Part shown: piece by piece, positions 27,608 to 51,040 of the stretch | Numbering within the stretch: the stretch's first letter is position 1 | How the letters are laid out: every line of letters starts with the position of its first letter | Origin: a virus | Lineage: Duplodnaviria; Caudoviricetes | IMG/VR virus record: IMGVR_UViG_3300049846_001564 | Span: 1-52,790 of that record | Direction: 5' to 3' (one strand) | Length of the DNA stretch: 52,790 nucleotides | Notes under the pieces: generated by a model | What the model saw: the letters and a program-made list of their open reading frames with translations, nothing else | Databases searched by the model: none | Told to the model about the DNA's origin: nothing | Translations under genes and position numbers: made by a program

Positions 27608-28057
27608 TTATTTCCCGGTACTACCAAATCCACCGGTACCTCTTTCTGAATGTGATAATTCGTCCACCTGTCTAAACACAATAGTTGGACGTTGCTGAAT
27701 AATTATTTGGACTATTTTGTTACCAACTTCATACTTCTTAGATTCATATCCATTAGTCTTTTTAAAGGTAAACATTAATTCACCACGATACCCATGGTCA
27801 ATAACCGCAACACTATTTGCAAGTACTAATTCCTTTCCTCTTATTGATGATCTAGGATAGACAAATCCGACATAGCCATATGGAATTTCCATAGCTATTC
27901 CGGTTCCATATGTTACTGAATCTATCTTATCATCTAACATACTGGTAGCTACTATATCCATACCACCATCTCCATGTGTAGCATACACAGGTATTTCTGC
28001 AAATGGATCTAATAGTTTAATATTTACCCACGTGACTGGTTCTAACATAGTGTCCAT
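27608..28057 (-). CDS. dut: trimeric dUTPase
   Basis: GMD, PRSS, VIDHGYRGE, RGTGGFGSTG. Confidence 0.95.
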   Translation of the reverse strand: MDTMLEPVTWVNIKLLDPFAEIPVYATHGDGGMDIVATSMLDDKIDSVTYGTGIAMEIPYGYVGFVYPRSSIRGKELVLANSVAVIDHGYRGELMFTFKKTNGYESKKYEVGNKIVQIIIQQRPTIVFRQVDELSHSERGTGGFGSTGK

Positions 28058-28063
28058 AATAAT

Positions 28064-28249
28064 TTAATTTTTATTTAATTCTTCGTCAATAAAAAAATAA
28101 AAAGCTGATTTAGTAAAATCCTTTTTGATTTGAGGATACTTTTTTCCTAAGACATCATATATCTTAAACGCCAAATCAGGTGCAATATCGTAATTCGATT
28201 CCTTTATTGAATTCGATTCCTTTATTTGTTTTCCTTTCTTAGAACTCAT
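28064..28249 (-). CDS. hypothetical protein
   Basis: Tightly packed ORF. Confidence 0.5.
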   Translation of the reverse strand: MSSKKGKQIKESNSIKESNYDIAPDLAFKIYDVLGKKYPQIKKDFTKSAFYFFIDEELNKN

Positions 28250-28250
28250 A

Positions 28251-28799
28251 TTAATTGTTTTTAGTTGATTGCATTAAATCCTTTACGTTTTCCTTACAAA
28301 AGCCATGGATGTCCCTGGTAATAAATTCATAAATAATACCTGTCAATTCAGATGGTTTAGTGAATACTTGGGAAAGTCCTGGACACGTTAATGGTTTGTC
28401 GGTAGTAAATTCTACATATCCCAATTTCTTTAGCTCATCCATCTTCCGCTCAACAGAATCTACTTGATATGCTATGTGATGAATTCCGCCTACACCACCT
28501 CTTTCTCTAACCCAAATGTCGACAATTGACCCGCGGCTACCATCAGATATGAAAATTTCCGGAGCTAAGTGGTAATTACAATACTCATCACCAAAGTATA
28601 TTTCAGTAGCCCATGGTTGAAATTCTGCTTTTATTTCGGGCGGTAATAAAACTAAACACTTAGCCCATGAACCATCTTCGAATTGAATATCGAACCCCTC
28701 AGGTAATTCTTCGGCTATCCTATAACCGAAAGCATCAATAAAAAAATTAGCTGACTTGAATCTGTCTTTTACTCTATACGCTATGTGATCTATTCTCAT
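28251..28799 (-). CDS. VOC-family metalloenzyme resembling the HPPD catalytic domain
   Basis: IDHIAY, GIHHIAY, SQVFT, YEFITR, GFCKENV. Confidence 0.75.
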   Translation of the reverse strand: MRIDHIAYRVKDRFKSANFFIDAFGYRIAEELPEGFDIQFEDGSWAKCLVLLPPEIKAEFQPWATEIYFGDEYCNYHLAPEIFISDGSRGSIVDIWVRERGGVGGIHHIAYQVDSVERKMDELKKLGYVEFTTDKPLTCPGLSQVFTKPSELTGIIYEFITRDIHGFCKENVKDLMQSTKNN

Positions 28800-28933
28800 T
28801 TATATGTATTCTGTCTTTTGTATTCTTTAATTTGTTCTTCCGTGTATTTAGGTGCTTTAGGATTTCGTTTCCTATATGCCGCTAACCATTCTTTGAAGCA
28901 CACTAGCGTTGCATTAATTGAATTCTTACTCAT
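28796..28933 (-). CDS. small basic hypothetical protein, 45 aa (not in ORF track)
   Basis: MSKNSINATLVCFKEWLAAY...; ATGA-type overlap with the VOC gene. Confidence 0.5.
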   Translation of the reverse strand: MSKNSINATLVCFKEWLAAYRKRNPKAPKYTEEQIKEYKRQNTYK

Positions 28934-28953: not shown

Positions 28954-29027
28954 TAGCCTATGAGGGATTCAAACCCTCAGCAGTCGATTTTAGAGATCGA
29001 TTCCGGTATCAGTCCGGATCATAGGCC
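28954..29027 (-). tRNA. amber suppressor tRNA (anticodon CUA)
   Basis: Acceptor GGCCTAT/ATAGGCT; anticodon arm TCGAT-CTCTAAA-ATCGA; T arm GAGGG-TTTGAAT-CCCTC. Confidence 0.85.
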
Positions 29028-29040
29028 ATATATGGGGACA

Positions 29041-29340
29041 TTACGTCCCCATTAATTTTAATTTACTTATCAACTTATCATCGGTTTGAAGCGCAATCGC
29101 TGTAACTTGATTATCGTAATCCGGCTCAATAAATTTTGAATATTTAATTCCTTTTAAATCTAACTTAAACATAAATTTATCAATATCATCTACACTTAAA
29201 TAGATTAAATATTGGTTATTCCAAGTCTGATTCGGATTTTCTAATAACCATTGTGCTAATGCGTGCCCACCTTGTACTCCCTGGTACGCTAATGATATAT
29301 CACTTCGCACTACTACGTATAACTTCTAATCGAGCTTCAT
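29041..29340 (-). CDS. Pth2-like peptidyl-tRNA hydrolase with an in-frame TAG at codon 5
   Basis: MKLD*KLYVVVRSD..VQGGHA..W..YL..EPD..TAIAL; the track's GTG start truncates the first beta-strand. Confidence 0.75.
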
Positions 29341-29599
29341 ATTGATTGGTTAATTGGTTAATAAACTCATTACTAAAAACTTCCTTATAATTGATATCTA
29401 TTTGTTCAGGCTTTTTACCTTTAAGAATCCCATATTCCATATAAAGCTTCCTTAATTCAGCTCTATTATTTTGGTGAGTTAAGTATGCTTTCCAAGGTTC
29501 CATTGTTCTTTCACCTTTTAATCGAACAGTACGTTTTTGGTTTCTTAACATAACTTGTTGATCGGCTAAAACTTTTATTTTTTCTTTTAAATTTTCCAT
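29300..29599 (-). CDS. hypothetical basic helical protein in the Pth2/suppressor operon
   Basis: 99-aa ORF overlapping the Pth2 5' end. Confidence 0.65.
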   Translation of the reverse strand: MENLKEKIKVLADQQVMLRNQKRTVRLKGERTMEPWKAYLTHQNNRAELRKLYMEYGILKGKKPEQIDINYKEVFSNEFINQLTNQYEARLEVIRSSAK

Positions 29600-29656
29600 G
29601 ATTATTTTATTTTTTGATTTTAAAATTTTTTATTAAACGTATTCCGGTTTAATAAA

Positions 29657-29692
29657 TCATGGTCCATCTCGAGATCTGTTCTACATTTTCAT
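29657..29692 (-). promoter_or_regulatory. putative leader peptide MKM*NRSRDGP* with internal amber codon
   Basis: ATG AAA ATG TAG AAC AGA TCT CGA GAT GGA CCA TGA; its 3' end is complementary to the downstream start codon. Confidence 0.6.
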
Positions 29693-29731
29693 AATGCTAT
29701 TCTTTACTATAAATATATATATGGTTTTTAT

Positions 29732-32662: not shown

Positions 32663-33451
32663 TTATATTTTTCTATCATCATATTCTACAATACCTTTAT
32701 TAATCGCATATTGGTGTATTTCATGTCCGCGCTCTAAATTAAAAGCATTCCATTCTTTAGTTGAAATAGAATCCTTAGTACACGTTGTATAACAATTAGG
32801 CGTCTCATATAAAGTTATTTTATGAATACGCAAATTATCATACTGCTTAAATAAGATTTCCATAGCTAAAAATATTTCTTTAGCTATATTCTCCGCAGAT
32901 GGATTACAATATTCTCTGGCGCCATTTAGTGACATCAACCATAATTTACTACCTAATTTTTTGGTTACGTCTATTAATTCAGTGTCCTTCGGATTGAGAA
33001 TCATGCCATGATCTAAAATATCATCTATCCATTGACACCCAACTCTTTTTATTTCTTTAAAGTCAATGGCATACCCAATAGCTTCCATTTCATTGAATTC
33101 AAATTCGAGTTCGTATAAATATGTGTGGCCCTAATTTGTTATCGTAGAAGTTCTTTATCATCTACTTCTTATAGTTTCCTATAAGATCGGACTATATCAT
33201 CAGTATATAACTGTCGGGAGCTCGTGGAAGTTTTATTGTTGGGACTCAACTTCTAGTCTCTGAACCTTTTATGAAACTCATAACCCTTCATAACTTGGCT
33301 GCTGATTGGCATATCTTTCGAATTAGCGTTCCAGCAATTCACCCGATTTATAGTGCACCGCTCAATGCACATTAAAACATTTCATTCTTTCATTCATAAC
33401 ACGATGGCCAGAATCAAAGGATCCTTTCCTCGTTATGTATTGTACTTTCAT
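32663..33451 (-). CDS. queD: 6-carboxytetrahydropterin synthase, two exons (33451-33365 and 33130-32663), 184 aa spliced
   Basis: Joining gives FDSGHRV..KCFNVH|GHTY..IDF..LDH..PSAENIA..YETP. Confidence 0.9.
33131..33364 (-). mobile_element. ORF-less group I intron, 234 nt
   Basis: Exon ends in U, intron ends in G; P1 GTGCAT/GTGCAC with U.G wobble; P AATTGCTGGAA, Q AATCAGCAGCC, R GTTCAGAGACTAG, S GATATAGTCC. Confidence 0.92.
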
Positions 33452-34088
33452 ATTCCATTAATTTAAATTTGTTATTGATTATATGTTTATAATGCGGCAA
33501 AAACTTTTTATTTACAATAAATATAACATTAAAATCAGTGTATTCCAAATACGCATAAATTTTTTTTATATTTCGATCTCTGCCTTTACTAGTAGCAGAT
33601 GCTATACCCGATACTTCTATAATGTTATTGTTGACTATAAAATCTGGTTTATATAATGCATCTAATATTTTTAAAGTAGGTTCCCGTAATACGGTGTGCG
33701 TGCATATCAATTTGTAAATTTCAACTTCATATGAACTCCTAAACCAAATATCTTTGTATTTTATTCCTCTATTTATATTGGACAATACTTTATTAAGGCT
33801 ATTTTCATTTGCCATAGGATTGTCTTTACCTCGTTTAAACCCGCATGCCGGTGTACTTGTACCGTATATTTCTTTATATGTTTTGCCTCGAGTCGAACAT
33901 CCCATTCCAAATCTACGACCCGGGGTTTTTATTATTTTACCACAACCGCATGCACATTCACGTGGTTGTTTGCACTCGGTGCACGTATAACATTTAACAT
34001 CAGCAGCTTTAAAATTTACATTGCAATATTTGCATTTACAATCAAACTTTAATTTTTTAGGAGCGTATTTGCCTCGAATTAAACTCAT
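33414..34088 (-). CDS. free-standing homing endonuclease-like protein (Cys-rich N-terminus, PD-(D/E)XK C-terminus)
   Basis: CACGCG, FRSSYE, YKPDF..IIEV; overlaps queD exon 1. Confidence 0.65.
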   Translation of the reverse strand: MSLIRGKYAPKKLKFDCKCKYCNVNFKAADVKCYTCTECKQPRECACGCGKIIKTPGRRFGMGCSTRGKTYKEIYGTSTPACGFKRGKDNPMANENSLNKVLSNINRGIKYKDIWFRSSYEVEIYKLICTHTVLREPTLKILDALYKPDFIVNNNIIEVSGIASATSKGRDRNIKKIYAYLEYTDFNVIFIVNKKFLPHYKHIINNKFKLMEYESTIHNEERIL

Positions 34089-35528: not shown

Positions 35529-36680
35529 CTACCAAATAAAATATTTATTACGTTTAACTAATTTCATTTCCTTTAAGATATTTGAATTAGAATCCGAAAT
35601 AACAACCATATAAATACCCGCAGGAAACTTACTGATATTAATATTGTTAGTGCCTATATGTAATTCATCTGCCTCAACAATATCGCCGGATATACCAAAT
35701 ATATTATAAAATACATACTTATGTTCGTGTTGTGCTATCTCTATAATTAAATTATCCGTAGCTGGATTCGGAAATATATTTATTACTGGATTCATATTAA
35801 TTTTGGTTATACCTACCGACAATGGTGGTTGTGTTATAGTTATAGTTTTACCCGCTACATCAATGGTTCCTGTCCTAAGAGATGAAGTTAAATTATCAGC
35901 AACTGTAATAGATACATTACCGGTACCGGAACCTACCGAATTAGTAGATAACCATGAAGCTCCTTGTGTTACGGTAGCTTGCCATTGACAACCTCCCTGT
36001 ACAGTAACCGTTGATATATTATTATATACTGCAAAATTTGAATTAGGGCACGTAAAAGATGAAGGACCTATTGTATAATTACAAGTCATAGTCGCAGTAA
36101 CATAAAAATCATCCATTCTAAAAACAGTATTGCCGGACGCGTTACTTATAAACCGCATACGTATTCTAACATTTTTATTTTGGTTTACATAACCATATGG
36201 TATAACCAAATAATATGAAGACCATGGTGCGCAGCTTCCATTATTATAACCGGGCTGAGCTTGCAATACTCCTAAATACCCTAGGTCTTTTTTTAATACA
36301 GTACCGGACGCGTCTAATATATCAAAAAATACATAGTCACCCACAGTCAACATCTCGCTCGTACTAATAGATGCTTTTAAGAAAAGAGTACATGCAGTAG
36401 TAGCTTGCGGACACATGAAAAATGGCGACAACAACGTGTCAGCCATATTACTATATCCGGTTTTACCATCCGTAGATCCGGACCAAACATATTTATTTGA
36501 ACTACTTTGTCCGCAGGAATTAGAATCAATCCTTAGTGTGCCTACTTTATCAAACACCCATCCAGTATTACCGTTATTGAAATCGCCATTTGGTATTGAT
36601 ATAGTTACTGTTTGTGCAAAAGTTTGGATGTTACACCAAACTATAAATAATAAAAATAAAATTATCTTTTTCATATTCAA
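35529..36680 (-). CDS. secreted protein with BACON domain and T9SS C-terminal sorting domain
   Basis: Signal peptide ..TFAQ; CQWQAT..SWL..RTGTI..ITITQ; IFPNPA..INISKFPAGIYMV..KLVK. Confidence 0.8.
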   Translation of the reverse strand: MNMKKIILFLLFIVWCNIQTFAQTVTISIPNGDFNNGNTGWVFDKVGTLRIDSNSCGQSSSNKYVWSGSTDGKTGYSNMADTLLSPFFMCPQATTACTLFLKASISTSEMLTVGDYVFFDILDASGTVLKKDLGYLGVLQAQPGYNNGSCAPWSSYYLVIPYGYVNQNKNVRIRMRFISNASGNTVFRMDDFYVTATMTCNYTIGPSSFTCPNSNFAVYNNISTVTVQGGCQWQATVTQGASWLSTNSVGSGTGNVSITVADNLTSSLRTGTIDVAGKTITITQPPLSVGITKINMNPVINIFPNPATDNLIIEIAQHEHKYVFYNIFGISGDIVEADELHIGTNNINISKFPAGIYMVVISDSNSNILKEMKLVKRNKYFIW

Positions 36681-43293: not shown

Positions 43294-43368
43294 TGGAGGG
43301 CGGAGAGGGAATTGAACCCACATAAATTGTTTTGCAGACAACCACCTTACGCAATCGGACATCCGCCC
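43294..43368 (-). tRNA. tRNA-Cys(GCA)
   Basis: Cloverleaf, loop CTGCAAA, U73-CCA. Confidence 0.9.
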
Positions 43369-43389
43369 TTGTTTATATATTGGTAAATT

Positions 43390-43753
43390 TGGTGGAGGAG
43401 GAGGGATTCGAACCCTCGTTTCCGATACCATTTTAAAGATTTTCTACAAGTTTAGTTATATTTTTCTAAATACACAAACTATCTATTTTTACAGAATAGA
43501 AACTGTTTACCACTCTTATTTATGATCACCTAATGGTCCGTGGTGATGGCTCTATTTTTAGGCTACTTCTAACACTTCAGGCTTGGCTTCCTGAGCAACA
43601 CGTGTAATAAAAGTTGGGATACTCATCATATCCTCAGAGTTATAAATGTTTCCACTTATAGTTACCTATTAATTTTTTAATCGCACACATTAATAGGCAA
43701 TGCGATACTTGCTTGTCAATAAACTAAATATCGGGGCTTTCCATGTCTCCCCC
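43390..43753 (-). ncRNA. ssrA: tmRNA
   Basis: GGGGGAG/CTCCTCC-ACCA with G3.U70; T arm GAGGG-TTCGAAT-CCCTC; tag ORF 43653-43558 GNIYNSEDMMSIPTFITRVAQEAKPEVLEVA*. Confidence 0.9.
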
Positions 43754-43758
43754 ATAAT

Positions 43759-43914
43759 GATTGCTAACTAAATAACTTTATCAGGTATCCCGTTGTCACG
43801 ACAGACGACTTCACACACCATAAGAAGCCAATGAGTATATAAATACTTGTCTAAGTGTGTACCCTTTCGCACCGTACTTCGTAGCTGTTATTCCACGCGT
43901 TGTAATTAGCAATC
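43759..43914 (-). ncRNA. unidentified structured RNA candidate
   Basis: Terminal inverted repeat GATTGCTAA/TTAGCAATC, nested AATAAC/GTTATT and ACACAC/GTGTGT; no ORF. Confidence 0.5.
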
Positions 43915-43940
43915 TGGATCTTATATAAATATAGTTCAAG

Positions 43941-44012
43941 TACCCAATACAAGATTTGAACTCGTATCTTTGCGTTCGAAGCGCAAGATGTTATCCTTTA
44001 CACCAATCGGGC
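43941..44012 (-). tRNA. tRNA-Arg(UCG)
   Basis: TTGCG-CTTCGAA-CGCAA. Confidence 0.9.
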
Positions 44013-44016
44013 AAAT

Positions 44017-44219
44017 AATTAATTGAGCTTAACCGGAATTCTGCTTTATCGTAACATTTGACTATTCCCTGACCAGAGTTTCGAAGCCTTGCTCACCGGC
44101 TAACTCAATTTAGGTTTCTACCTCGGTAGTGCAAATGATTTTTTAAATCTCCTACCTTAAGCAATGTAGTTCCGAGTTTTCTAATACATTTAAGTACTCG
44201 TTACGTTCTCTTATTAATT
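44017..44219 (-). ncRNA. rnpB: minimal RNase P RNA (~203 nt)
   Basis: P1 ends AATTAAT..GAG/CTC..ATTAATT; P2 CGTAAC/GTTACG; AGAAAACTCGGAA pairs with GCAGAATTCCGGTTA (P4 with bulged U). Confidence 0.7.
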
Positions 44220-44222
44220 TAG

Positions 44223-44295
44223 TACCTCTACCGAGATTCGAACTCGGACAAACAGTTTCTAAGACTGTCCTGACTACCAATTACAGCATAGAGGC
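44223..44295 (-). tRNA. tRNA-Leu(UAG), short variable loop
   Basis: ACAGT-CTTAGAA-ACTGT; variable loop TTGT. Confidence 0.85.
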
Positions 44296-44652
44296 ATTTT
44301 TTGTTCTTTCTCTTATACGTTCTCTAATTATTAACTCATCTCTTTTAGTTGGAATATAATTATTCATTAAATGATCCGGTACATTATCCCAACAATTACC
44401 ATAGTAAGTAACATTATAGTTTCTACGTTTGCATTCTTTATAAAGTTCTTCATATCTGTTTTTTAAATATAATAACTTATCATAAAAAAATTTTACATGA
44501 CCTTTACCTAAAGTGAATTCTTTCGGCTGATCTTTTAAGTTGTACCTTCCTTTAACTATACAATTAGGAATCCTTTTTATTTCACGATGCTCGGCTATTA
44601 AATGCCTATTTGATAACTCCACAACCGGAATAGCTACATTTATTCTAGTCAT
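44281..44652 (-). CDS. denV: pyrimidine dimer DNA glycosylase / endonuclease V
   Basis: MTRIN, HLIAEHREIKRI, LGKGHVKFFYDKL. Confidence 0.9.
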   Translation of the reverse strand: MTRINVAIPVVELSNRHLIAEHREIKRIPNCIVKGRYNLKDQPKEFTLGKGHVKFFYDKLLYLKNRYEELYKECKRRNYNVTYYGNCWDNVPDHLMNNYIPTKRDELIIRERIRERTKNASML

Positions 44653-44666
44653 TTTTTAAAATTTAG

Positions 44667-44739
44667 TACCCGAACCGAGATTCGAACTCGGACACTTAGG
44701 TTTTGAGTCTAATACGACTACCAATTACGTCATTCGGGC
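44667..44739 (-). tRNA. tRNA-Leu(CAA), short variable loop
   Basis: Loop CTCAAAA; variable loop GTGT. Confidence 0.85.
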
Positions 44740-44743
44740 ATAT

Positions 44744-44813
44744 ACGGATCATTTACCTAATATGATACTAATGGTGATCAAGTCCATAGGTAGGATTCGA
44801 ACCTACTTTTCCG
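44744..44813 (-). ncRNA. permuted tRNA-like module (T arm, closed acceptor, D arm)
   Basis: CGGA..GTAGG-TTCGAAT-CCTAC-CTATGG..CCATTAG-TA-TCAT..ATGA-TCCG. Confidence 0.5.
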
Positions 44814-44819
44814 TTTTTG

Positions 44820-44892
44820 TACCCCCACTCGGATTCGAACCGAGACACTTAGATTTTAAGCCTAATACGACTACCAATTACGTCATGGGGGC
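44820..44892 (-). tRNA. tRNA-Leu(UAA), short variable loop
   Basis: TTAGG-CTTAAAA-TCTAA; variable loop GTGT. Confidence 0.85.
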
Positions 44893-44901
44893 AAATTAAA
44901 A

Positions 44902-45645
44902 CTATCCTATTTTATTTATTATATCTTTTTTACTTAATTTCATTGCTTCGGATGCATATATACTAGATTTAGGTCCATTAACCTTACTCTGTCCACTTGA
45001 AAAGCCTTCTGTATAATTAGTGGAATAAGCATACTGCCCCGATATATCTACTACGACAAAATTAGACTTTATATTTACAGACCATATACCGTGCTGTAAT
45101 AATAACTGTATATAAACAGTTTTCCATTTAAATCCTTTCTTTTCTAGATTTTCTAGATTTGCCGCCGTTTGTTTACTAAACGATACTTTATCATACGGTT
45201 TTTTGATACCGGCAAAGTCTACGTTCTTTTTACCTATTTTAAACTTAAAGTGAGTTTTATTTTGTTTTTGAATTAATGCGGTATATAAGCTACTAACTTT
45301 ATCTCTAATCTTCCCAATTGAATATTTTTTTAATTCCGCTTTAGCTTTAGCGTCTTTCGCAATTAAATCTTTAATTTTTTTAGGCGTGCTATTATTATCA
45401 TGCAATAAATCTGAAAGTTCTTTTCCATCAAAAACTTTATGCAAATCCAATCCTCGCGGGACATCATTTAGTGATGTCTGTTTTAAAATTTCAATTGGAT
45501 CATAATATTTTTCATTTAGCTGTGCGTGCTTCCATTCCGAACTACTTTTGTAAATTGTTCCATGTTTATATTCCTTTATGTTATCAAGTATAATTTTGCT
45601 AATAGCAGGAATAATTTCTTTTGCACTTTTCTTAACTAGAGCCAT
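44902..45645 (-). CDS. hypothetical Lys-rich protein inside the tRNA array
   Basis: 247-aa ORF preceded by the ATATTTAT motif. Confidence 0.7.
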   Translation of the reverse strand: MALVKKSAKEIIPAISKIILDNIKEYKHGTIYKSSSEWKHAQLNEKYYDPIEILKQTSLNDVPRGLDLHKVFDGKELSDLLHDNNSTPKKIKDLIAKDAKAKAELKKYSIGKIRDKVSSLYTALIQKQNKTHFKFKIGKKNVDFAGIKKPYDKVSFSKQTAANLENLEKKGFKWKTVYIQLLLQHGIWSVNIKSNFVVVDISGQYAYSTNYTEGFSSGQSKVNGPKSSIYASEAMKLSKKDIINKIG

Positions 45646-45682
45646 TGTTTATTTTTATATAAATATTAAGAATTATTTTTTG

Positions 45683-45754
45683 AGCTTCTAACCGGGATCG
45701 GACCGATGAATCATCTTTACGAAAGACGTAGTTTACCAATTAACTTATAGAAGC
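45683..45754 (-). tRNA. tRNA-Thr(CGU)
   Basis: CGTCT-TTCGTAA-AGATG. Confidence 0.85.
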
Positions 45755-45757
45755 GAG

Positions 45758-45830
45758 AGCACCCACCAGGTAACGATCCTGGTTCTCTAGTTTACAAAAC
45801 TAGACATCATCCATTAAATGCTTTGGGTGC
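45758..45830 (-). tRNA. tRNA-Thr(UGU)
   Basis: CTAGT-TTTGTAA-ACTAG. Confidence 0.85.
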
Positions 45831-45836
45831 TTCATA

Positions 45837-46250
45837 TTACTGATTCTTTTCATAACCAGAAAGATACCCAATAATATTTTGTTTACCAACCGGATTCATA
45901 CTATGAACCAAATAATCAGGTAATTTAAGTTTATGATCTATACAAAAGTCTACTAACCATTTAGCACATTCATATCCTGTCTTTTCTTTAAACCGTGAAT
46001 AGTTTCTATTATATGCATCCGGACCTTCATACATAGTAGGAGCATAATGTTCATCAGCTAAATCATGATCAAATGAAATTAATTCCGGGAAAGCACCATC
46101 CTCATCAAACTTATTAGTTATTTCCTGAATAAACTCATCATACGACCTAACTACTACCCATCGTAAATTATTATACAATGTATTATGAGTATATTTAAAA
46201 GCGTCCATAGGGCTTCTAAAATCATCTAAGAATAAATTATATTTCATCAT
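45837..46250 (-). CDS. cyclic-phosphate-processing receiver-like domain protein
   Basis: LFLDD.R, ISFDHDL, TGYECAKWL, VHSMNPVG. Confidence 0.75.
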   Translation of the reverse strand: MMKYNLFLDDFRSPMDAFKYTHNTLYNNLRWVVVRSYDEFIQEITNKFDEDGAFPELISFDHDLADEHYAPTMYEGPDAYNRNYSRFKEKTGYECAKWLVDFCIDHKLKLPDYLVHSMNPVGKQNIIGYLSGYEKNQ

Positions 46251-46271
46251 AATAACTAATTTTTATTTTTG

Positions 46272-46357
46272 CGGAAGATAATGGTAACGATCCATTCCGG
46301 GTTTAAAGCCCGACCTCTGTTTAGCAAACAGGTACAATACCTCTCTGTCAATCTTCC
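46272..46357 (-). tRNA. tRNA-Ser(GCU)
   Basis: Loop TTGCTAA, long variable arm, G73. Confidence 0.9.
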
Positions 46358-46365
46358 GTATCAAG

Positions 46366-46449
46366 CGGTAAGTAGAAGTGTCGATCTCCCATCCTTGTAG
46401 ACGCATCCTAGTTTTCAAGACTAGTTCCCAGGCCGCTGGGGTACTTACC
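46366..46449 (-). tRNA. tRNA-Ser(UGA)
   Basis: CTAGT-CTTGAAA-ACTAG, long variable region, G73. Confidence 0.85.
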
Positions 46450-46457
46450 GTGTTATG

Positions 46458-46530
46458 TAGCTCTATAAGGATTCAAACCTTAACTCAATCATTCGTAGTG
46501 ATTAGTACTATTCAATTATACTATAGAGCC
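46458..46530 (-). tRNA. tRNA-Arg(ACG)
   Basis: AATCA-CTACGAA-TGATT. Confidence 0.9.
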
Positions 46531-46575
46531 ATGCTGAATATCAAGCAGTTACCCGAACCGCCCGAAGTTCATTAG

Positions 46576-46648
46576 TACCCCTACTAGGATTCAAACCTAG
46601 ATACTGGGTTTAGAAGACCCAGGTCCTATTCTATTAAACGATAGGGGC
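46576..46648 (-). tRNA. tRNA-Arg(UCU)
   Basis: TGGGT-CTTCTAA-ACCCA. Confidence 0.9.
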
Positions 46649-46654
46649 ATTTTG

Positions 46655-46727
46655 TGTTTCTACCAAGATTCAAACTCGGATAATCTCTTTAGGAAAGAGA
46701 TATGTTATTCAATTACATCATAGAAAC
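46655..46727 (-). tRNA. tRNA-Arg(CCU)
   Basis: TCTCT-TTCCTAA-AGAGA. Confidence 0.85.
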
Positions 46728-46774
46728 AATATATAAATTTAATTTATTATTACATATAAACCAAATTTATTAAG

Positions 46775-46848
46775 GGTGTCCAATGGGTTACGATCCCATG
46801 TCCTTACTTTCACAGAGTAGCGCACTTACCAATTATGCTATGGACACC
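46775..46848 (-). tRNA. tRNA-His(GUG)
   Basis: Loop CTGTGAA; encoded G-1 opposite C73. Confidence 0.9.
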
Positions 46849-46854
46849 ATTTTG

Positions 46855-46926
46855 CGCAAGTGGCAGGATTCGAACCCGCATAAGGCAGTTTTGGAGGCTG
46901 CTACCTAACCATTCGGACACACTTAC
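46855..46926 (-). tRNA. tRNA-Trp(CCA)
   Basis: Loop CTCCAAA, G73. Confidence 0.85.
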
Positions 46927-46939
46927 GTATTTGTCATTG

Positions 46940-47012
46940 TGGGAAACAGTGGACTCGAACCACATTGCAGTTCGGTTTTACAGACCGTCTGACCAACCCC
47001 GGGCGATTTCCC
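46940..47012 (-). tRNA. tRNA-Tyr(GUA), atypical D arm and short variable region
   Basis: CGGT-CTGTAAA-ACCG; T arm GTGG-TTCGAGT-CCAC. Confidence 0.7.
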
Positions 47013-47017
47013 AATTG

Positions 47018-47089
47018 TGCGTTCGAAGAGACTTGAACTCTTATAGCCTAGTTTAAGAGACTAGTACATTACCATTATGCTACGAACGC
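47018..47089 (-). tRNA. tRNA-Lys(CUU)
   Basis: CTAGT-CTCTTAA-ACTAG. Confidence 0.9.
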
Positions 47090-47186
47090 AATGTGCGAAC
47101 CTCTCTTCGCGTGTCACCCTCCACTGTTTAGCGCCTATCGGTATATACCGATTAAATTGAGTCCGCGGACAGGTCAACGACTCTCT

Positions 47187-47260
47187 TGGTACCCCCTGAG
47201 AGATTTGAACTCCCACCAATTGCATGTAAAACAATCACGCTACCATTACGCCAAAGGGGC
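47187..47260 (-). tRNA. tRNA-Val(UAC)
   Basis: ATTGT-TTTACAT-GCAAT; encoded CCA. Confidence 0.9.
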
Positions 47261-47271
47261 ATTTAAAATAG

Positions 47272-47349
47272 TACTCTCGGGGGGACTTGAACCCACATTT
47301 TCAACCAATTACCTTTATGCAAGATATAAGCTTGCGGGGATACGAGAGC
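47272..47349 (-). tRNA. rearranged tRNA-Ile(UAU): no D arm, D-loop-like variable region
   Basis: GCTCTCG-TATCCCC-GCAAG-CTTATAT-CTTGC-ATAAAGGTAATTGGTTGAAAAT-T arm-CGAGAGT-A. Confidence 0.7.
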
Positions 47350-47356
47350 AAATTCT

Positions 47357-47462
47357 GACATCACTAGGATTCAATTAACCGCCTTTAAGTTTTTATTGCT
47401 TTCGAGCAGAAACTCCATAATCCGTCGGAGCGTCCTTGAATCATTCGGACTAATAGATGTCA
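47357..47462 (-). ncRNA. unidentified structured RNA candidate between the two Ile tRNAs
   Basis: Nested TGACATC/GATGTCA and GATTCAA/TTGAATC stems plus internal hairpins. Confidence 0.45.
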
Positions 47463-47465
47463 TAG

Positions 47466-47543
47466 TCGGCAAGGAGGGAGTTGAACCCACATTTTCAACC
47501 AATTACCTTACTCCTGTGTATCAGACAGGGCGGATACTTGCCG
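47466..47543 (-). tRNA. rearranged tRNA-Ile(GAU): no D arm, D-loop-like variable region
   Basis: CGGCAAG-TATCCGC-CCTGT-CTGATAC-ACAGG-AGTAAGGTAATTGGTTGAAAAT-T arm-CTTGCCG-A. Confidence 0.7.
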
Positions 47544-47616
47544 TGGCTGCAAGGGTGGGGTTTCACCACGCATCCGGCTGACAGACCGGTACTCTATTTT
47601 GCTAAGCTACCTTGCG
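47544..47616 (-). tRNA. atypical tRNA-Asp(GUC)-like
   Basis: GCAAGG/CCTTGC acceptor, GCCA end, CCGG-TCTGTCAG-CCGG, non-consensus T loop TGAAACC. Confidence 0.5.
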
Positions 47617-47696
47617 ATACGAGCTTTTTATCTTATGACTAATACGTACTCGTCATCTATTATTACCTCGCATTTTTATACATTCCTGTATAAGAG

Positions 47697-47770
47697 TGGA
47701 CACGTTCGGACTTGAACCGAGAACTCTGGACTGCAAAACCAGTGTGATAGCCAAATTTCACCAACGGCCC
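47697..47770 (-). tRNA. tRNA-Ala(UGC)
   Basis: G3.U70, loop TTTGCAG, bulged acceptor stem. Confidence 0.8.
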
Positions 47771-47776
47771 TTATTT

Positions 47777-47862
47777 CCTCGTGCTACCATTACACTATAT
47801 CTCAAATACAACGACGTTGTCGTCGACATTCTCATAGATATCGGAATCGAACCGCTCTTAGG
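47777..47862 (-). ncRNA. permuted tRNA-like module with long insert closing the acceptor stem
   Basis: CCT..CGG-TTCGATT-CCG-ATATCT..AGATA-TA-GTGT-AATGGTA-GCAC-G-AGG. Confidence 0.5.
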
Positions 47863-47866
47863 GTAG

Positions 47867-47936
47867 ATGCCTCATTAGGACTTGAACCTAAAATTACTGC
47901 TTCAGAGGCAGTAGTGTTACATTACACTATAAGGCA
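47867..47936 (-). tRNA. tRNA-Gln(CUG)
   Basis: ACTGC-CTCTGAA-GCAGT. Confidence 0.85.
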
Positions 47937-47942
47937 TTTTAG

Positions 47943-48015
47943 TAGCCCCTATCTGAATCGAACAGATACCCTTCGGGTCAAAGCCGAATACACTCAACCA
48001 TTATGCTAAGGGGCA
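47943..48015 (-). tRNA. tRNA-Gln(UUG)
   Basis: TTCGG-CTTTGAC-CCGAA. Confidence 0.85.
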
Positions 48016-48018
48016 ATA

Positions 48019-48204
48019 TTAAATACTATCAGAAATTTCTTTTTTAGTTAATCGTTTCAACCAGGTCCTTCTAAGTTTAGAAAATAGATTTCTTTGTATT
48101 TTACTTTTTCTTTTTTTAGACATTTTGTTATCGCAACACGGGCACTTCATGCCTCCTGGACCACCTATATATAGGAATCCAGCCTCTTTATATAAATCTT
48201 TCAT
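48019..48204 (-). CDS. small basic protein, 61 aa, with CPCC
   Basis: MKDLYKEAG..GPGGMKCPCC..; start placed after tRNA-Gly. Confidence 0.55.
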   Translation of the reverse strand: MKDLYKEAGFLYIGGPGGMKCPCCDNKMSKKRKSKIQRNLFSKLRRTWLKRLTKKEISDSI

Positions 48205-48219
48205 AATATATAATTTTAG

Positions 48220-48290
48220 AGCAGGTAATGGAAATCGAATCCACAACTGCGACTTGGCAAGCCGCTGTATTACCATTATACTATACCTGC
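48220..48290 (-). tRNA. tRNA-Gly(GCC)
   Basis: GCGGC-TTGCCAA-GTCGC. Confidence 0.9.
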
Positions 48291-48295
48291 TTATG

Positions 48296-48369
48296 AGCAC
48301 GTGATCGGCATCGAACCGACTCTATTCCTGGTTGGAAGCCAGGTGCACCACCATTTATGCGTCACATGC
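48296..48369 (-). tRNA. tRNA-Gly(UCC)
   Basis: CCTGG-CTTCCAA-CCAGG. Confidence 0.9.
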
Positions 48370-48379
48370 TTATTTTAAT

Positions 48380-48517
48380 TGGTGCGGTGAGTGGTAGTTT
48401 ATCCCCACGTCTCCCAGTACTCGACCGGGCACGCTACTTTGAAATATTAACTAGTTTATTAAGAAGGCCTTCTTAATATAGTCGCGACTAAAATATTCCA
48501 TTCTGCGCCATCACCAA
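48380..48517 (-). ncRNA. tRNA-like RNA with ~60-nt insertion in the D loop
   Basis: GGTGA/TCACC acceptor, ACCA end, GCGC/GCGT D stem, CCCGG-TCGAGTA-CTGGG arm, non-consensus T loop. Confidence 0.45.
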
Positions 48518-48519
48518 CG

Positions 48520-48591
48520 TACCGATACTGAAACTCGAATTCAGATTAATGCCTTATGAGAGCACTGTAATTGCCTTTATACGATATCGAT
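48520..48591 (-). tRNA. tRNA(CAU), elongator Met or Ile2
   Basis: GTGCT-CTCATAA-GGCAT. Confidence 0.8.
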
Positions 48592-48596
48592 ATTAG

Positions 48597-48674
48597 TAGC
48601 GAGGGTGGGATTCGAACCCACATTATGAACTGCTTATGAGACAGACGCTGGTAACCATTCCAGTCCTCCTCGCG
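48597..48674 (-). tRNA. tRNA-Met(CAU), initiator-like acceptor
   Basis: C1/U72 mismatch, CGCGAGG acceptor, loop CTCATAA. Confidence 0.75.
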
Positions 48675-48679
48675 ATATG

Positions 48680-48755
48680 TCTAGCATCCAGGATTCGAAC
48701 CTGGGCTTTCTGCGCCCCAAACGCAGCCGGAAAAACCTGACTTCCGTAATGCTAG
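48680..48755 (-). tRNA. tRNA-Pro(UGG)
   Basis: CTGCG-TTTGGGG-CGCAG; C1-G72, A73. Confidence 0.9.
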
Positions 48756-48838
48756 ATAAAAAAGAATCCAACGTTCCCCCGAGTGTGCTATTCTACTTTA
48801 CACCATGGGCGCCTCCCAGAGTGTTCTGATTCTTTATG

Positions 48839-48910
48839 CGGTCTATGAGGGTTACGATCCCTCTACCCCACCGTGACAGGATGGTATGATAGCCAGTTCA
48901 CCAATAGACC
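48839..48910 (-). tRNA. tRNA-Asp(GUC)
   Basis: CCATC-CTGTCAC-GGTGG, G73. Confidence 0.9.
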
Positions 48911-48953
48911 GGGTCGCCCTTTTTATTTTAAATGCCGGGCACAGCATTCAAAG

Positions 48954-49027
48954 TAGCCCCAACGGAAGTCGAATCCGTATCGCAGGATTGAAAGTCCTGC
49001 ATCCTAAGCCATTTAGACGATGGGGCC
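48954..49027 (-). tRNA. tRNA-Glu(UUC)
   Basis: CAGGA-CTTTCAA-TCCTG. Confidence 0.9.
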
Positions 49028-49108
49028 ATATTATCCGCAATATTCCGCGGATAAGTTTTAAATTTACCAATATGTCAAAGATCAATAATATAATCGAAAT
49101 TTAATTAG

Positions 49109-49199
49109 TGCGCTCGGTTGGATTCGAACCAACGCGGGGATTTGTCATCCCATCGGTTTAAAAGACCGGACCATTCGACCTGACTAAGGATACGAGCGC
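49109..49199 (-). tRNA. tRNA-Lys(UUU) with long variable arm
   Basis: CGGT-CTTTTAA-ACCG; variable arm GGGAT-GACAA-ATCCC; acceptor GCGCTCG/CGAGCGC-A. Confidence 0.8.
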
Positions 49200-49208
49200 A
49201 TTTATATA

Positions 49209-49265
49209 GCGCTCTTTCCTTAGAGCGCATTAACGTTTATATTTTCGTTTATATTTCATTTTCAT
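49209..49265 (-). promoter_or_regulatory. Lys-rich leader MKMKYKRKYKR* (49265-49230) plus hairpin GCGCTCT/AGAGCGC
   Basis: 5 of 11 codons are AAA; the hairpin 3' arm is also complementary to the tRNA-Lys 5' end. Confidence 0.6.
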
Positions 49266-49279
49266 TCTTTTTTTAATCG

Positions 49280-49351
49280 AGCCAACACTGAAAATCGAAT
49301 TCAGATATCTACCTTACCAAGGTAGCGTAATAGCCTTTATACTATGTCGGC
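49280..49351 (-). tRNA. tRNA-Thr(GGU)
   Basis: CTACC-TTGGTAA-GGTAG. Confidence 0.9.
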
Positions 49352-49357
49352 TTAATG

Positions 49358-49429
49358 CGGGGGAGATTGGTAACGATCCAATATCCGGTGCTTAACAGGC
49401 ACTCGCTAATCCATTTCAGCTACACCCCC
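49358..49429 (-). tRNA. tRNA-Asn(GUU)
   Basis: GTGC-CTGTTAA-GCAC, G73. Confidence 0.85.
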
Positions 49430-49435
49430 ATTATG

Positions 49436-49757
49436 TTGCCCTAAACTCTCTTAGGCTTTTATACCTATTGTAGGCGCGGCATTCGGCGCCTCGTTATTCG
49501 GAATTTCTTCCTACAGTTTATACGAAGGGCGTCCTACCTTTGAACGATCTGGCCGAAGCCAGAGTAGGACTCGAACCTACATTTCCCCTTGATCTTGCCG
49601 GTAAACTCTCTTGAGATTTTACACCCATTGTAGGCGTAGCATGAACGCCTCGTTGTTCAGAATTTCTTCCTACAGTTTACCTCGACCGGCGTTTTTCTAT
49701 TAAACTACCTGGACGCTAAGCGTCCTGGGTGGGATTCGAACCCACATCTCCGGTTTC
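49436..49757 (-). repeat. two tandem ~160-nt units, each a permuted tRNA-like module plus a conserved ~85-nt structured tail
   Basis: Tails 49436-49520 and 49595-49680 share TAAACTGTAGGAAGAAATTC..AACGAGGCG..CGCCTACAAT..AAGAGAGTTTA. Confidence 0.8.
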
Positions 49758-49758
49758 G

Positions 49759-49831
49759 TGCGATGGGTTGGTACCGAGCCAACATCTACGGATTTTCAGT
49801 CCGCTGCATAGACCATCTTTGCTACCACCGC
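49759..49831 (-). tRNA. tRNA-Phe(GAA)
   Basis: GCGGA-CTGAAAA-TCCGT. Confidence 0.85.
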
Positions 49832-50174: not shown

Positions 50175-51040
50175 ACGCTGAGATTATACGTTTATACGTC
50201 ACGACTTTCAAAGGATTATCTTGTTCCCTTTTTATCCAGAAGCTTTTGACTTCTACCTTGACAATGCCGATTGGTTAGACCAATCACTCCTTGAGTTGCT
50301 ATTTATCGGTTACTCTCTACATACTAACTCTTACTTAACCCTGCCGAGCTAATTAATCCTTGCGAGACTATAAGGCTTTCTACAAAATCAATATCAGCTT
50401 GCGACTAATATTGGCATCCGACAACCGGATACTAGGTAGGCATCTTTCACCTGCAACTGACAAGCACTTTTGCTTTTATGTTTCCAATGAGATTTTCATT
50501 AACAGTGAAATTCATAGTAGCGACTTGTGGATGGATGAAAGTAGTGGCTCGTCATTCCAGCTTTCCCAACTTTTGGAAGGGAAAATACTAAACTACTCTC
50601 TAAGATGTCCCCATCTTCATATTTTAAGATTCTTTCATAAAATGAACTTGGTGAGTTCATAATAAGGAAAACAGCAACACCACTTGGTTATTTTCTTGCT
50701 TTTCAGCTTTAAAGCTCCTCTAATATTGAAACACGCAATAGTACATTTAGATAAATGTATTTCTTACAATACTTCTATGAATTATTCTTATTGGAGTTCC
50801 CCCCTCAACCCAACAACCCACATTGCCGAGTCACCAAATCCGTTCCGTCTCAGTGTTACCCAAACGTACTTGGATCCAATGATATTCCACTTGCCTACTC
50901 GAGTCCAAATATTTCTATTTGGGCCGCAAACTACTTCAGTCAAAGTAATTCACTTTATACCACTTTCATGGTTTATTTAACGACTATAGGCCGCCAATAT
51001 CTTTTCATTAATCCAAATTCCGGACTAATTGGATACAAAT
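50175..51040 (-). ncRNA. large structured non-coding RNA candidate (~860 nt, GOLLD-sized)
   Basis: No minus-strand ORF in the track, raised GC, many hairpins including GNRA loops, next to the tRNA array, boxA-like site upstream. Confidence 0.6.

Follow-up and report, generated by a model that had tools for sequence, protein, structure and literature searches.

A putative stop-codon-gated operon ending in its own suppressor tRNA in a Caudoviricetes contig

Organization and recurrence of the locus

The 52,790-nucleotide (nt) contig IMGVR_UViG_3300049846_001564, from a virus of the Caudoviricetes (Duplodnaviria) and called here, at its full length, the window, carries on the minus strand a candidate operon in which two in-frame TAG codons precede the gene for a suppressor transfer RNA (tRNA) with anticodon CUA. 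The order in transcription is the motif TATATTTAT, a leader micro-open reading frame (ORF), an A+U-rich spacer of 57 nt, an ORF of 99 amino acids (aa) named ORF99, a frame encoding a Pth2-like protein, a hairpin and the tRNA, all on the minus strand (Table 1). A preliminary description of this DNA had listed the motif at the head of the unit, the micro-ORF MKM*NRSRDGP*, a 99-aa ORF without known function between leader and Pth2-like gene, the interrupted Pth2-like gene and the tRNA. On checking the sequence and the ORFs all these elements were found in place, the micro-ORF being identical in sequence to the one claimed.

Table 1. Elements of the candidate operon in the window
Feature	Position	Strand	Details
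Promoter-like motif TATATTTAT	29717-29709	minus	17 nt upstream of the leader ATG
Leader micro-ORF	29692..29657	minus	ATG 29692, TAG 29683-29681, CCA 29662-29660, TGA 29659-29657
Predicted anti-start RNA structure	29596..29662	minus	CCAUGAU 29662-29656 paired with AUCAUGG 29602-29596
ORF99	29599-29300	minus	99 aa, conserved, helical
Pth2-fold gene	29340-29041	minus	ATG 29340, TAG 29328-29326 (codon 5), GTG 29310, TAA 29043-29041
G+C-rich hairpin	29032..29052		spans the stop codon of the Pth2-like gene; ends 4 nt before the tRNA 5' end
Suppressor tRNA	29027-28954	minus	anticodon CUA 28993-28991; no encoded CCA; Infernal RF00005

The window was compared with 160 loci encoding Pth2-like homologues, 80 viral and 80 metagenomic, taking as linked the first same-strand tRNA found within 600 nt downstream of the Pth2-like gene. 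Of 140 assessable loci, 123 have a suppressor as the linked tRNA; so have 22 of the 26 assessable clusters formed at 70% identity. The association holds even where the linked tRNA is the only one of the locus. Most linked anticodons are CUA, UCA being found in two lineages and UUA in two. In 49 related loci (the window not counted) a relative of ORF99 immediately precedes the Pth2-like gene on its strand, and at least one leader candidate was detected in 97 of 118 assessable loci. Whether leader, ORF99, Pth2-fold gene and suppressor tRNA travel together had been put forward beforehand as a check, and these three counts bear out their co-occurrence in diverged phages. The recurrence of the same parts in related loci indicates a conserved design and not chance, a design shared by many large phages that are not related.

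Versions of the module occur in cultured phages, which makes bench tests possible. In Mycobacterium phage ScoobyDoobyDoo, gene 79, annotated as 'peptidyl tRNA hydrolase', is followed 180 nt later by a tRNA(cta). The Pth2-like fusion gene starts ATG AAR TAG in Tenacibaculum phage pT24 and in Stenotrophomonas phage RAS14, both of which encode a tRNA(cta), and the annotated coding sequences (CDS) begin downstream, the 5' part being cut off. The Pth2-like domain is fused in pT24 (L161, 1450-2403) and RAS14 (L163, 946-1806) to a second domain common to both, C-terminal in the former and N-terminal in the latter, which is taken to be HD-like from an H-D-(I/L)-G-K motif.

The leader and its pairing with the ORF99 start

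The leader reads ATG AAA ATG TAG AAC AGA TCT CGA GAT GGA CCA TGA. Similar leaders were searched 300-620 nt upstream of the Pth2-like gene with a pattern blind to the type of stop (ATG, 1-6 codons, any stop, and a tail with [RK]..P or PP), control intervals being run alongside. The first stop of the leader matches the anticodon of the downstream tRNA in 96 of 98 candidates. Where the tRNA is CUA the stop is TAG in 90 candidates (29 distinct strings), TAA in one and TGA in one; with UCA tRNAs it is TGA (4/4 candidates), and with UUA tRNAs TAA (2/2). The covariation of leader stop and anticodon extends over TAG, TGA and TAA. Leader-like matches in the control intervals had mostly TGA, hence the search pattern is not itself biased toward TAG. 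In a locus with a UCA tRNA (L085) a cut leader is retained, with TGA before VSSRGDP. Leader tails end as R-G-S/D-P-stop, R-D-G-P-stop (the form of the window) or P-P-stop. A purine follows the leader stop in 44 of 49 distinct contexts, and follows the terminators of window genes in 24 of 62.

Two further observations concern the leaders. A second mini-ORF, AUG AUU UAU UAA (29660-29649, minus strand), three codons long, overlaps the CCAUGA of the leader; equivalent overlapping mini-ORFs are found in L082 (MNY), L090 (MIS), L001 and L086 (both MIC), and are absent from other lineages. In L052 (3001-3276) a TAG leader, MKH*INLIPP*, and a tRNA(cta) accompany a Pth2-like homologue with TGA at the invariant Trp40; in this phage TGA is probably decoded as Trp.

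The end of the leader can pair with the start of ORF99. CCAUGAU, made up by the leader Pro codon, the stop and one base, is paired in the minimum-energy fold with AUCAUGG, the start-codon region of ORF99, and in the same fold an inner A+U hairpin joins 29656-29647 to 29638-29629. In 25 distinct leaders, duplexes were scored between a 24-nt stretch beginning with the last Pro codon and 32 nt around the start of the next gene, with shuffled and non-cognate partners as controls. The window duplex has an energy of -10.0 kcal/mol vs. a shuffle mean of -3.8 (z -4.19), and none of 300 shuffles was as good. Values of z below -2 were obtained for 22 of the 25 leaders (median -3.95), and in 13 of the 25 the cognate partner is better than all 24 non-cognate partners. 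The stems differ in sequence among lineages, hence the pairing, and not the sequence, is conserved. A stem in which the 3' end of a short ORF sequesters the initiation region of the next gene, the arrangement expected of an attenuator, is what these values describe in the window and in most of the leaders. Both this pairing and the UGA and UAA versions of the module are additions to the preliminary description.

As to transcription, 15 copies of TATATTTAT are found in the window vs. 8.2 expected, a number reached in 1 of 100 shuffles; 11 are on the coding strand, and several, on comparison with the window ORF list, sit just upstream of genes. Strings of the ATATTTAT(A) type lie upstream of the leader in L082, L086, L001, L083 and L090. 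We infer that TATATTTAT acts as the promoter of the operon. The leader might act on transcription rather than translation, termination at UAG exposing the RNA to Rho or letting a terminator form, and readthrough raising transcription of both genes and tRNA in a positive feedback. The position of the tRNA, downstream and on the same strand, would suit this, as would a consensus scan from leader to tRNA that gave no promoter other than one weak match within ORF99; synthetic switches in which a TAG in a leader peptide unmasks a rut site also exist, according to excerpts of PMC6412442. The conserved partner of the leader 3' end is, however, the start-codon region of the next ORF and not a U-tailed hairpin, and a terminator scan gave no intrinsic terminator on the operon strand. 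Control of transcription by the leader is quite improbable. The G+C-rich hairpin that precedes the tRNA is terminator-like on the plus strand only, no U-run following it on the operon strand, and may be a processing or pausing signal.

Protein genes, suppressor tRNA and genetic code

The Pth2-like frame reads MKLD*KLYVVVRSD. The codons from TAG to GTG are AAG TTA TAC GTA GTA, and the absence of any ATG, GTG or TTG between the two, pointed out before, was found to be correct. In the AlphaFold2 (AF2) model, built from 30 sequences (predicted local distance difference test, pLDDT, 93.6), the first strand is made of residues 6-12, KLYVVVR, all upstream of the GTG; a start at GTG 29310 would yield a protein without this core strand. 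The top 13 Foldseek matches in PDB are Pth2-family or Pth2-like proteins, those of M. jannaschii, S. solfataricus, P. horikoshii and A. fulgidus, human Bit1 and Atu0240 among them (template modelling, TM, score 0.55-0.73; E 6e-5 to 7e-3), the next matches having E >= 0.3. The alpha/beta fold is the same as that of archaeal and eukaryotic Pth2 (PDB 2zv3, 1xty, 1q7s, 1wn2; TM 0.65-0.73), and the N-terminal strand and a GGHA motif align with the M. jannaschii enzyme. Unlike Pth2, the protein is shorter, about 95 aa, and gives no significant sequence match: Pfam has no family at E <= 1 for either the readthrough or the GTG form, the gathering score of PF01981 not being reached, a profile search against PDB gives E 0.57, and NCBIfam has no match. 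In PHROGs it matches phrog_3668 'hydrolase' (1.6e-6) and phrog_1866 (1.5e-6), the matches beginning at residues 3-5. The identification as Pth2 accordingly stands for the fold, as predicted by AF2 and Foldseek, and not for the Pfam PTH2 family: the modelled protein is a Pth2-fold protein which is not a sequence-level member of PF01981. Q23, H26, E72 and P73 are invariant among database homologues, D74 and T80 nearly so; these motifs resemble those of Pth2 and presumably correspond to its catalytic residues.

Database homologues number 29. Most of them (23) start with M and 0-2 residues right before the first strand, five are called from an internal Met, and one is extended at the N-terminus; the window TAG aligns with the variable residue that follows their Met. 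The closest are 70-80% identical to the window protein, the best among the DNA loci compared 66-67%. A mid-gene in-frame TAG interrupts the Pth2-like gene in seven other lineages (L035, L044, L037, L050, L067, L033, L078), at differing codons, and the neighbouring ORFs of these loci have no in-frame TAG, or end in TAG. In L058 and L059 there is no start before the first strand, and the domain follows the TAG of the upstream ORF; in L115 TAG is codon 3 of the gene. Such repeated and independent gains of an in-frame TAG point to selection for suppressor dependence.

ORF99 overlaps the Pth2-like frame by 41 nt at its 3' end. Its relatives align with conserved QRKT and GER motifs, and the AF2 model (pLDDT 86.9) features three long helices. 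Searches gave sub-threshold matches only in Pfam, none in NCBIfam, a best E of 1.9 with Foldseek in PDB, and only matches below threshold in the ESM Atlas. Prediction of a complex between ORF99 and the Pth2-like protein scored 0.25 vs. a mark of 0.32. For the upstream ORF of L059, homology to ORF99 found no support (hhalign probability 11%, one helix only). The ORF99-like gene itself ends in TAG in L082 (621-923), L111 (1548-1853), L126 (106-600) and L135 (3406-3900); the linked tRNA of L111 is UUA.

A programmed +1 frameshift, fusing the two proteins without any readthrough, would suit the overlap and the position of the Pth2-like frame, +1 with respect to that of ORF99; in L058 and L059 upstream ORF and Pth2-like domain do share one frame. 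The join in these two loci is a TAG and not a change of frame, though, the gene of relatives starts at an ATG of its own ahead of the first strand, and no site of the slippery or hungry-codon type was seen. The likelihood of a frameshift is close to nil.

The tRNA(CUA) was recognized by Infernal in a search of the local region with RF00005 (42.2 bits, gathering 29, E 6.7e-8, model positions 1-71), and is missed by a fast Rfam scan of the full window. It had been described as well formed. Score and anticodon uphold the tRNA; its form is non-canonical, and ARAGORN misses it. The canonical tertiary positions U8, G18-G19 and C56 are not found, G occupying position 8, the D-loop GACUGAUAC being without GG, and the T-loop reading UUUGAAU. 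The tRNA also features a G1-U72 pair, an anticodon loop CU-CUA-AA, and a 3' end ACUA, so that addition of CCA would fall to the host. Of the 58 distinct suppressor tRNAs linked to the module, 55 were scored by script and 3 left unscored. In those with U instead of C56 the D-loop has GA for GG in 6 of 8, while tRNAs with C56 have GG in 45 of 47. The co-occurrence of GA and U56 suggests that the elbow pair is compensated, and hence fits a tRNA that folds. Module-linked suppressors are diverse, some with long variable arms, and the identity of the tRNA(CUA) to the other tRNAs of the window does not exceed 51%. That it may be charged and may read UAG on the ribosome is suggested, indirectly, by the matching stops found at conserved sites of the leader and of the Pth2-like gene. 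The window has an array of 26 tRNAs called by ARAGORN (43297-49831, minus strand), adjoined by a transfer-messenger RNA (tmRNA; 43390-43753, minus strand, 76 bits), and two more array tRNAs were found by Rfam alone (43297-43368, GCA; 47697-47770, UGC). None of the array tRNAs is a suppressor, and the tRNA(CUA) lies 14 kb away from them, with its module.

The contig uses the standard code, TAG being a stop everywhere in the 52.8 kb but in this operon. Under table 11 the coding coverage is 0.864; counting TAG as a sense codon brings it to 0.896, and the gain is not greater than with the other stops. TAG terminates seven minus-strand ORFs, and in two of them a Pfam domain reaches the C-terminus (Por_Secre_tail, residues 302-370 of 383; RNaseH_like, 11-149 of 152), in keeping with the earlier statement that TAG is a normal stop in the other genes. 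Code 15, in which TAG would lie inside many genes, would not serve as terminator and would raise coding density when read through, does not describe the contig. No other gene start of the ATG-x-TAG type is found in the window. The sole other TAG of the window with long open stretches on both sides, TAG 15591, was rejected as a second readthrough site: it ends a 60-aa ORF, and the clamp-loader-like gene has its own start 24 codons later. For related loci, coding coverage under other codes was not used to call recoding, since it rises whichever stop is removed and is too noisy.

Reassignment of TAG over the whole genome or in late genes, the tRNA(CUA) serving recoded genes elsewhere and the operon TAGs being two among many, would be compatible with the size of the contig, 52.8 kb against the 90-410 kb of the relatives' contigs. 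Lak phages, which read TAG as an amino acid, carry a homologue of the Pth2-like gene. The portions of Borges et al. (10.1101/2021.08.26.457843) that deal with such phages describe suppressor tRNAs with standard-code early and recoded late genes, and standard-code phages acquiring the suppressor first. Against reassignment, apart from the leader TAG no other readthrough candidate survives in the contig, TAG 15591 being a true stop, and TAG terminates seven genes; the Pth2-like gene of seven other lineages contains a TAG, and the flanking genes have none; random recoding would not yield the covariation of leader stop and anticodon over TAG, TGA and TAA. Recoding as the whole explanation is improbable. 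The two readings are compatible: a code change could be under the control of the module.

Proposed operation and relation to known systems

The locus is best read as a stop-codon-gated operon depending on its own suppressor tRNA, with a leader attenuator and a second TAG gate at codon 5 of the Pth2-fold gene, a reading to which a probability of about 0.7 is given. ORF99 and the Pth2-fold protein are probably made only when the UAG-reading tRNA of the operon is active. A local UAG-readthrough switch had been proposed in the preliminary description, and the part of it that concerns gating of the suppressor-carrying operon is supported by tRNA linkage, stop-anticodon covariation, recurrent TAGs and the standard code of the contig. 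Its further parts, a feedback of the proteins or of translation on the tRNA and a sensing of release-factor inhibition, are hypothetical. We infer that the ribosome stalls, that the tRNA is charged and that the loop closes, and likewise the sense in which control runs and what the two proteins do biochemically.

Transcription would probably start from TATATTTAT, and the first ORF met by ribosomes is the leader, three sense codons followed by UAG. With no active suppressor the ribosome would terminate at UAG, 21 nt before CCAUGAU, the stem with AUCAUGG would stay closed, and ORF99 and the overlapping Pth2-fold gene would be poorly translated. With charged tRNA(CUA) it would read seven more codons, up to R-D-G-P-UGA, and would probably linger at the proline tail, occupying the 5' arm of the stem and freeing the ORF99 start. 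Lingering is expected because ribosomes are slowed by a proline that adjoins the stop and by R-x-G-P endings, of which the R-A-G-P of SecM is one. The Pth2-fold gene of the window would need a second readthrough at codon 5, and its output should consequently rise steeply with suppressor activity. The tRNA would be supplied from the 3' end of the same operon.

The Pth2-fold enzyme, perhaps with ORF99, might then act on a tRNA-linked species connected with suppression, cleaving its ester bond. A role as a throttle on the suppressor, a sort of homeostat, is tentatively favoured over clean-up. Clearing of peptidyl-tRNA made by readthrough, which the phage-encoded tmRNA would fit, is a possible but somewhat doubtful role. 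A portable, self-calibrating cassette, in which an ORF99-guided Pth2-fold enzyme strips amino acid or peptide off its own suppressor tRNA, seems rather unlikely; since synthesis of the enzyme needs one or two readthroughs, suppression would be held at a set low level. If this held true, standard-code phages could carry a suppressor safely, and the cassette would be the missing intermediate toward reassignment of any of the three stops.

Several observations weigh against a gated operon. No leader candidate was found in 21 of the 118 assessable loci, including a whole group with long-variable-arm tRNAs, and a Myrna-type phage has the gene-tRNA pair without an evident leader. In L083 (190-282) and L084 the tail IFDIRGSP* follows TAG, and the sole nearby ATG is out of frame; a start codon other than ATG, an indel or a faulty assembly may account for this. 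Mis-assigned starts are the probable reason why L145 and L146 do not pass the pairing test. The fold of the window alone, a single sequence, has a non-significant z of only -0.72, and for 12 leaders in a plain MAFFT alignment RNAalifold gave no consensus stem beyond 2 base pairs, a consequence of spacers that do not align. The contig is a fragment, and TAG-containing late genes may reside elsewhere in the genome. Pfam finds no PTH2 domain in the Pth2-like protein, ARAGORN at default settings does not call the tRNA, and the ORF99 stop (29302-29300) lies 8 nt after GTG 29310, a geometry suiting re-initiation at this GTG.

Another reading is decay or chance, with a nonsense mutation or a plain start at GTG 29310, a chance micro-ORF in an A+T-rich spacer, and a degenerate tRNA relic, the tRNA being rejected by ARAGORN. 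Gene callers indeed give the 89-aa GTG form (P0001), the spacing of GTG and ORF99 stop is a common coupling geometry, and five database homologues are likewise called from an internal Met. The GTG form is nevertheless without the first core strand; leader, stop type, proline tail and pairing are kept in dozens of distinct sequences; and the tRNA reaches 42.2 bits and has a compensated elbow pair common to relatives. Decay or chance is therefore very unlikely.

In ermC/ermB, cat, SecM-secA and MifM-yidC2 a ribosome held at the end of a leader ORF melts a stem hiding the initiation region of the next gene. The operon resembles such leader-peptide translational attenuation, as the 5' arm begins at the last Pro codon of the leader and the 3' arm covers the ORF99 start. 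It differs in its signal, which would be neither a drug nor a secretion defect nor amino-acid supply, and instead the suppressor reading an early leader stop; without this signal the ribosome would leave early instead of stalling. In the trp, his and phe attenuators leader codons report the availability of one charged tRNA species. Here too the leader would sense one charged tRNA, in this case a phage suppressor that would be sensed at a stop codon; the logic would be inverted, presence of the tRNA opening expression, and the target looks translational and unlike a terminator. A gated operon of this kind is ribosome-mediated attenuation in a new form, tied to a new conserved module of protein genes and tRNA.

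The release factor 2 (RF2) gene prfB is autoregulated through an in-frame UGA, according to parts of PMC12421855; in both cases an early in-frame stop in a translation-related gene ties synthesis to the decoding of that stop, though here by tRNA readthrough and not by a +1 frameshift, and the product is a Pth2-fold protein and not the factor that reads the stop. Recoded phages carry a 'code change module' of suppressor tRNA, aminoacyl-tRNA synthetase and release factor, as set out in portions of 10.1101/2021.08.26.457843. The likeness lies in a suppressor tRNA beside standard-code translation-related genes whose expression is proposed to await the suppressor. The window module differs in having neither synthetase nor release factor, its partners being a Pth2-fold protein and ORF99, in keeping TAG as a stop, and in gating its own genes; the word 'hydrolase' occurs 0 times in the text of the same paper, supplementary Table S2 aside. 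Synthetic amber-leader switches likewise make downstream expression suppressor-dependent by a leader TAG; going by the excerpted text of PMC6412442 they are engineered and act on transcription via rut unmasking, whereas the present one is natural and appears to act on initiation of translation.

In the literature consulted no published description of a module of leader, ORF99, Pth2-fold gene and suppressor tRNA was found. For phage XacN1, the reading through of all 18 amber stops by its authors gave no target for the CUA suppressors in the sections of PMC5852040 that treat them, and the corresponding part of a 2026 jumbo-phage survey (PMC13037316) treats suppressors only in the context of recoding. 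Suppressor tRNAs of standard-code phages, with no known target so far, would gain a conserved one in the leader and Pth2-fold gene of their own operon. The operon would be a natural regulator measuring stop-codon suppression, a device until now only engineered as far as the excerpts of PMC6412442 go, and would connect a Pth2-fold family, together with a new helical protein, with stop-codon reassignment. Annotation is affected as well, in that gene starts are routinely mis-called, as with the GTG form of the window and the truncated CDS of pT24 and RAS14, and in that non-canonical suppressor tRNAs are missed by standard finders.

Other features of the window deserve mention. A nucleotide search of a phage collection gave only two weak matches, to uncultured huge phages (636 and 595 kb), which match window positions 28000-28805, the region of a glyoxalase-like gene, at 69-71% identity. 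A 383-aa protein (35529-36680, minus strand) features a BACON domain and a C-terminal sorting domain of the type IX secretion system; the latter speaks for a host among the Bacteroidota, and the genes, in agreement with this, lack preceding Shine-Dalgarno sequences. A group I intron (33168-33421, minus strand, 91.6 bits), located between ORFs 32663-33088 and 33414-34088, probably splits a gene. A full-length GOLLD RNA (50175-50600, minus strand; 250 bits, gathering 150) resides just upstream of the tRNA array.

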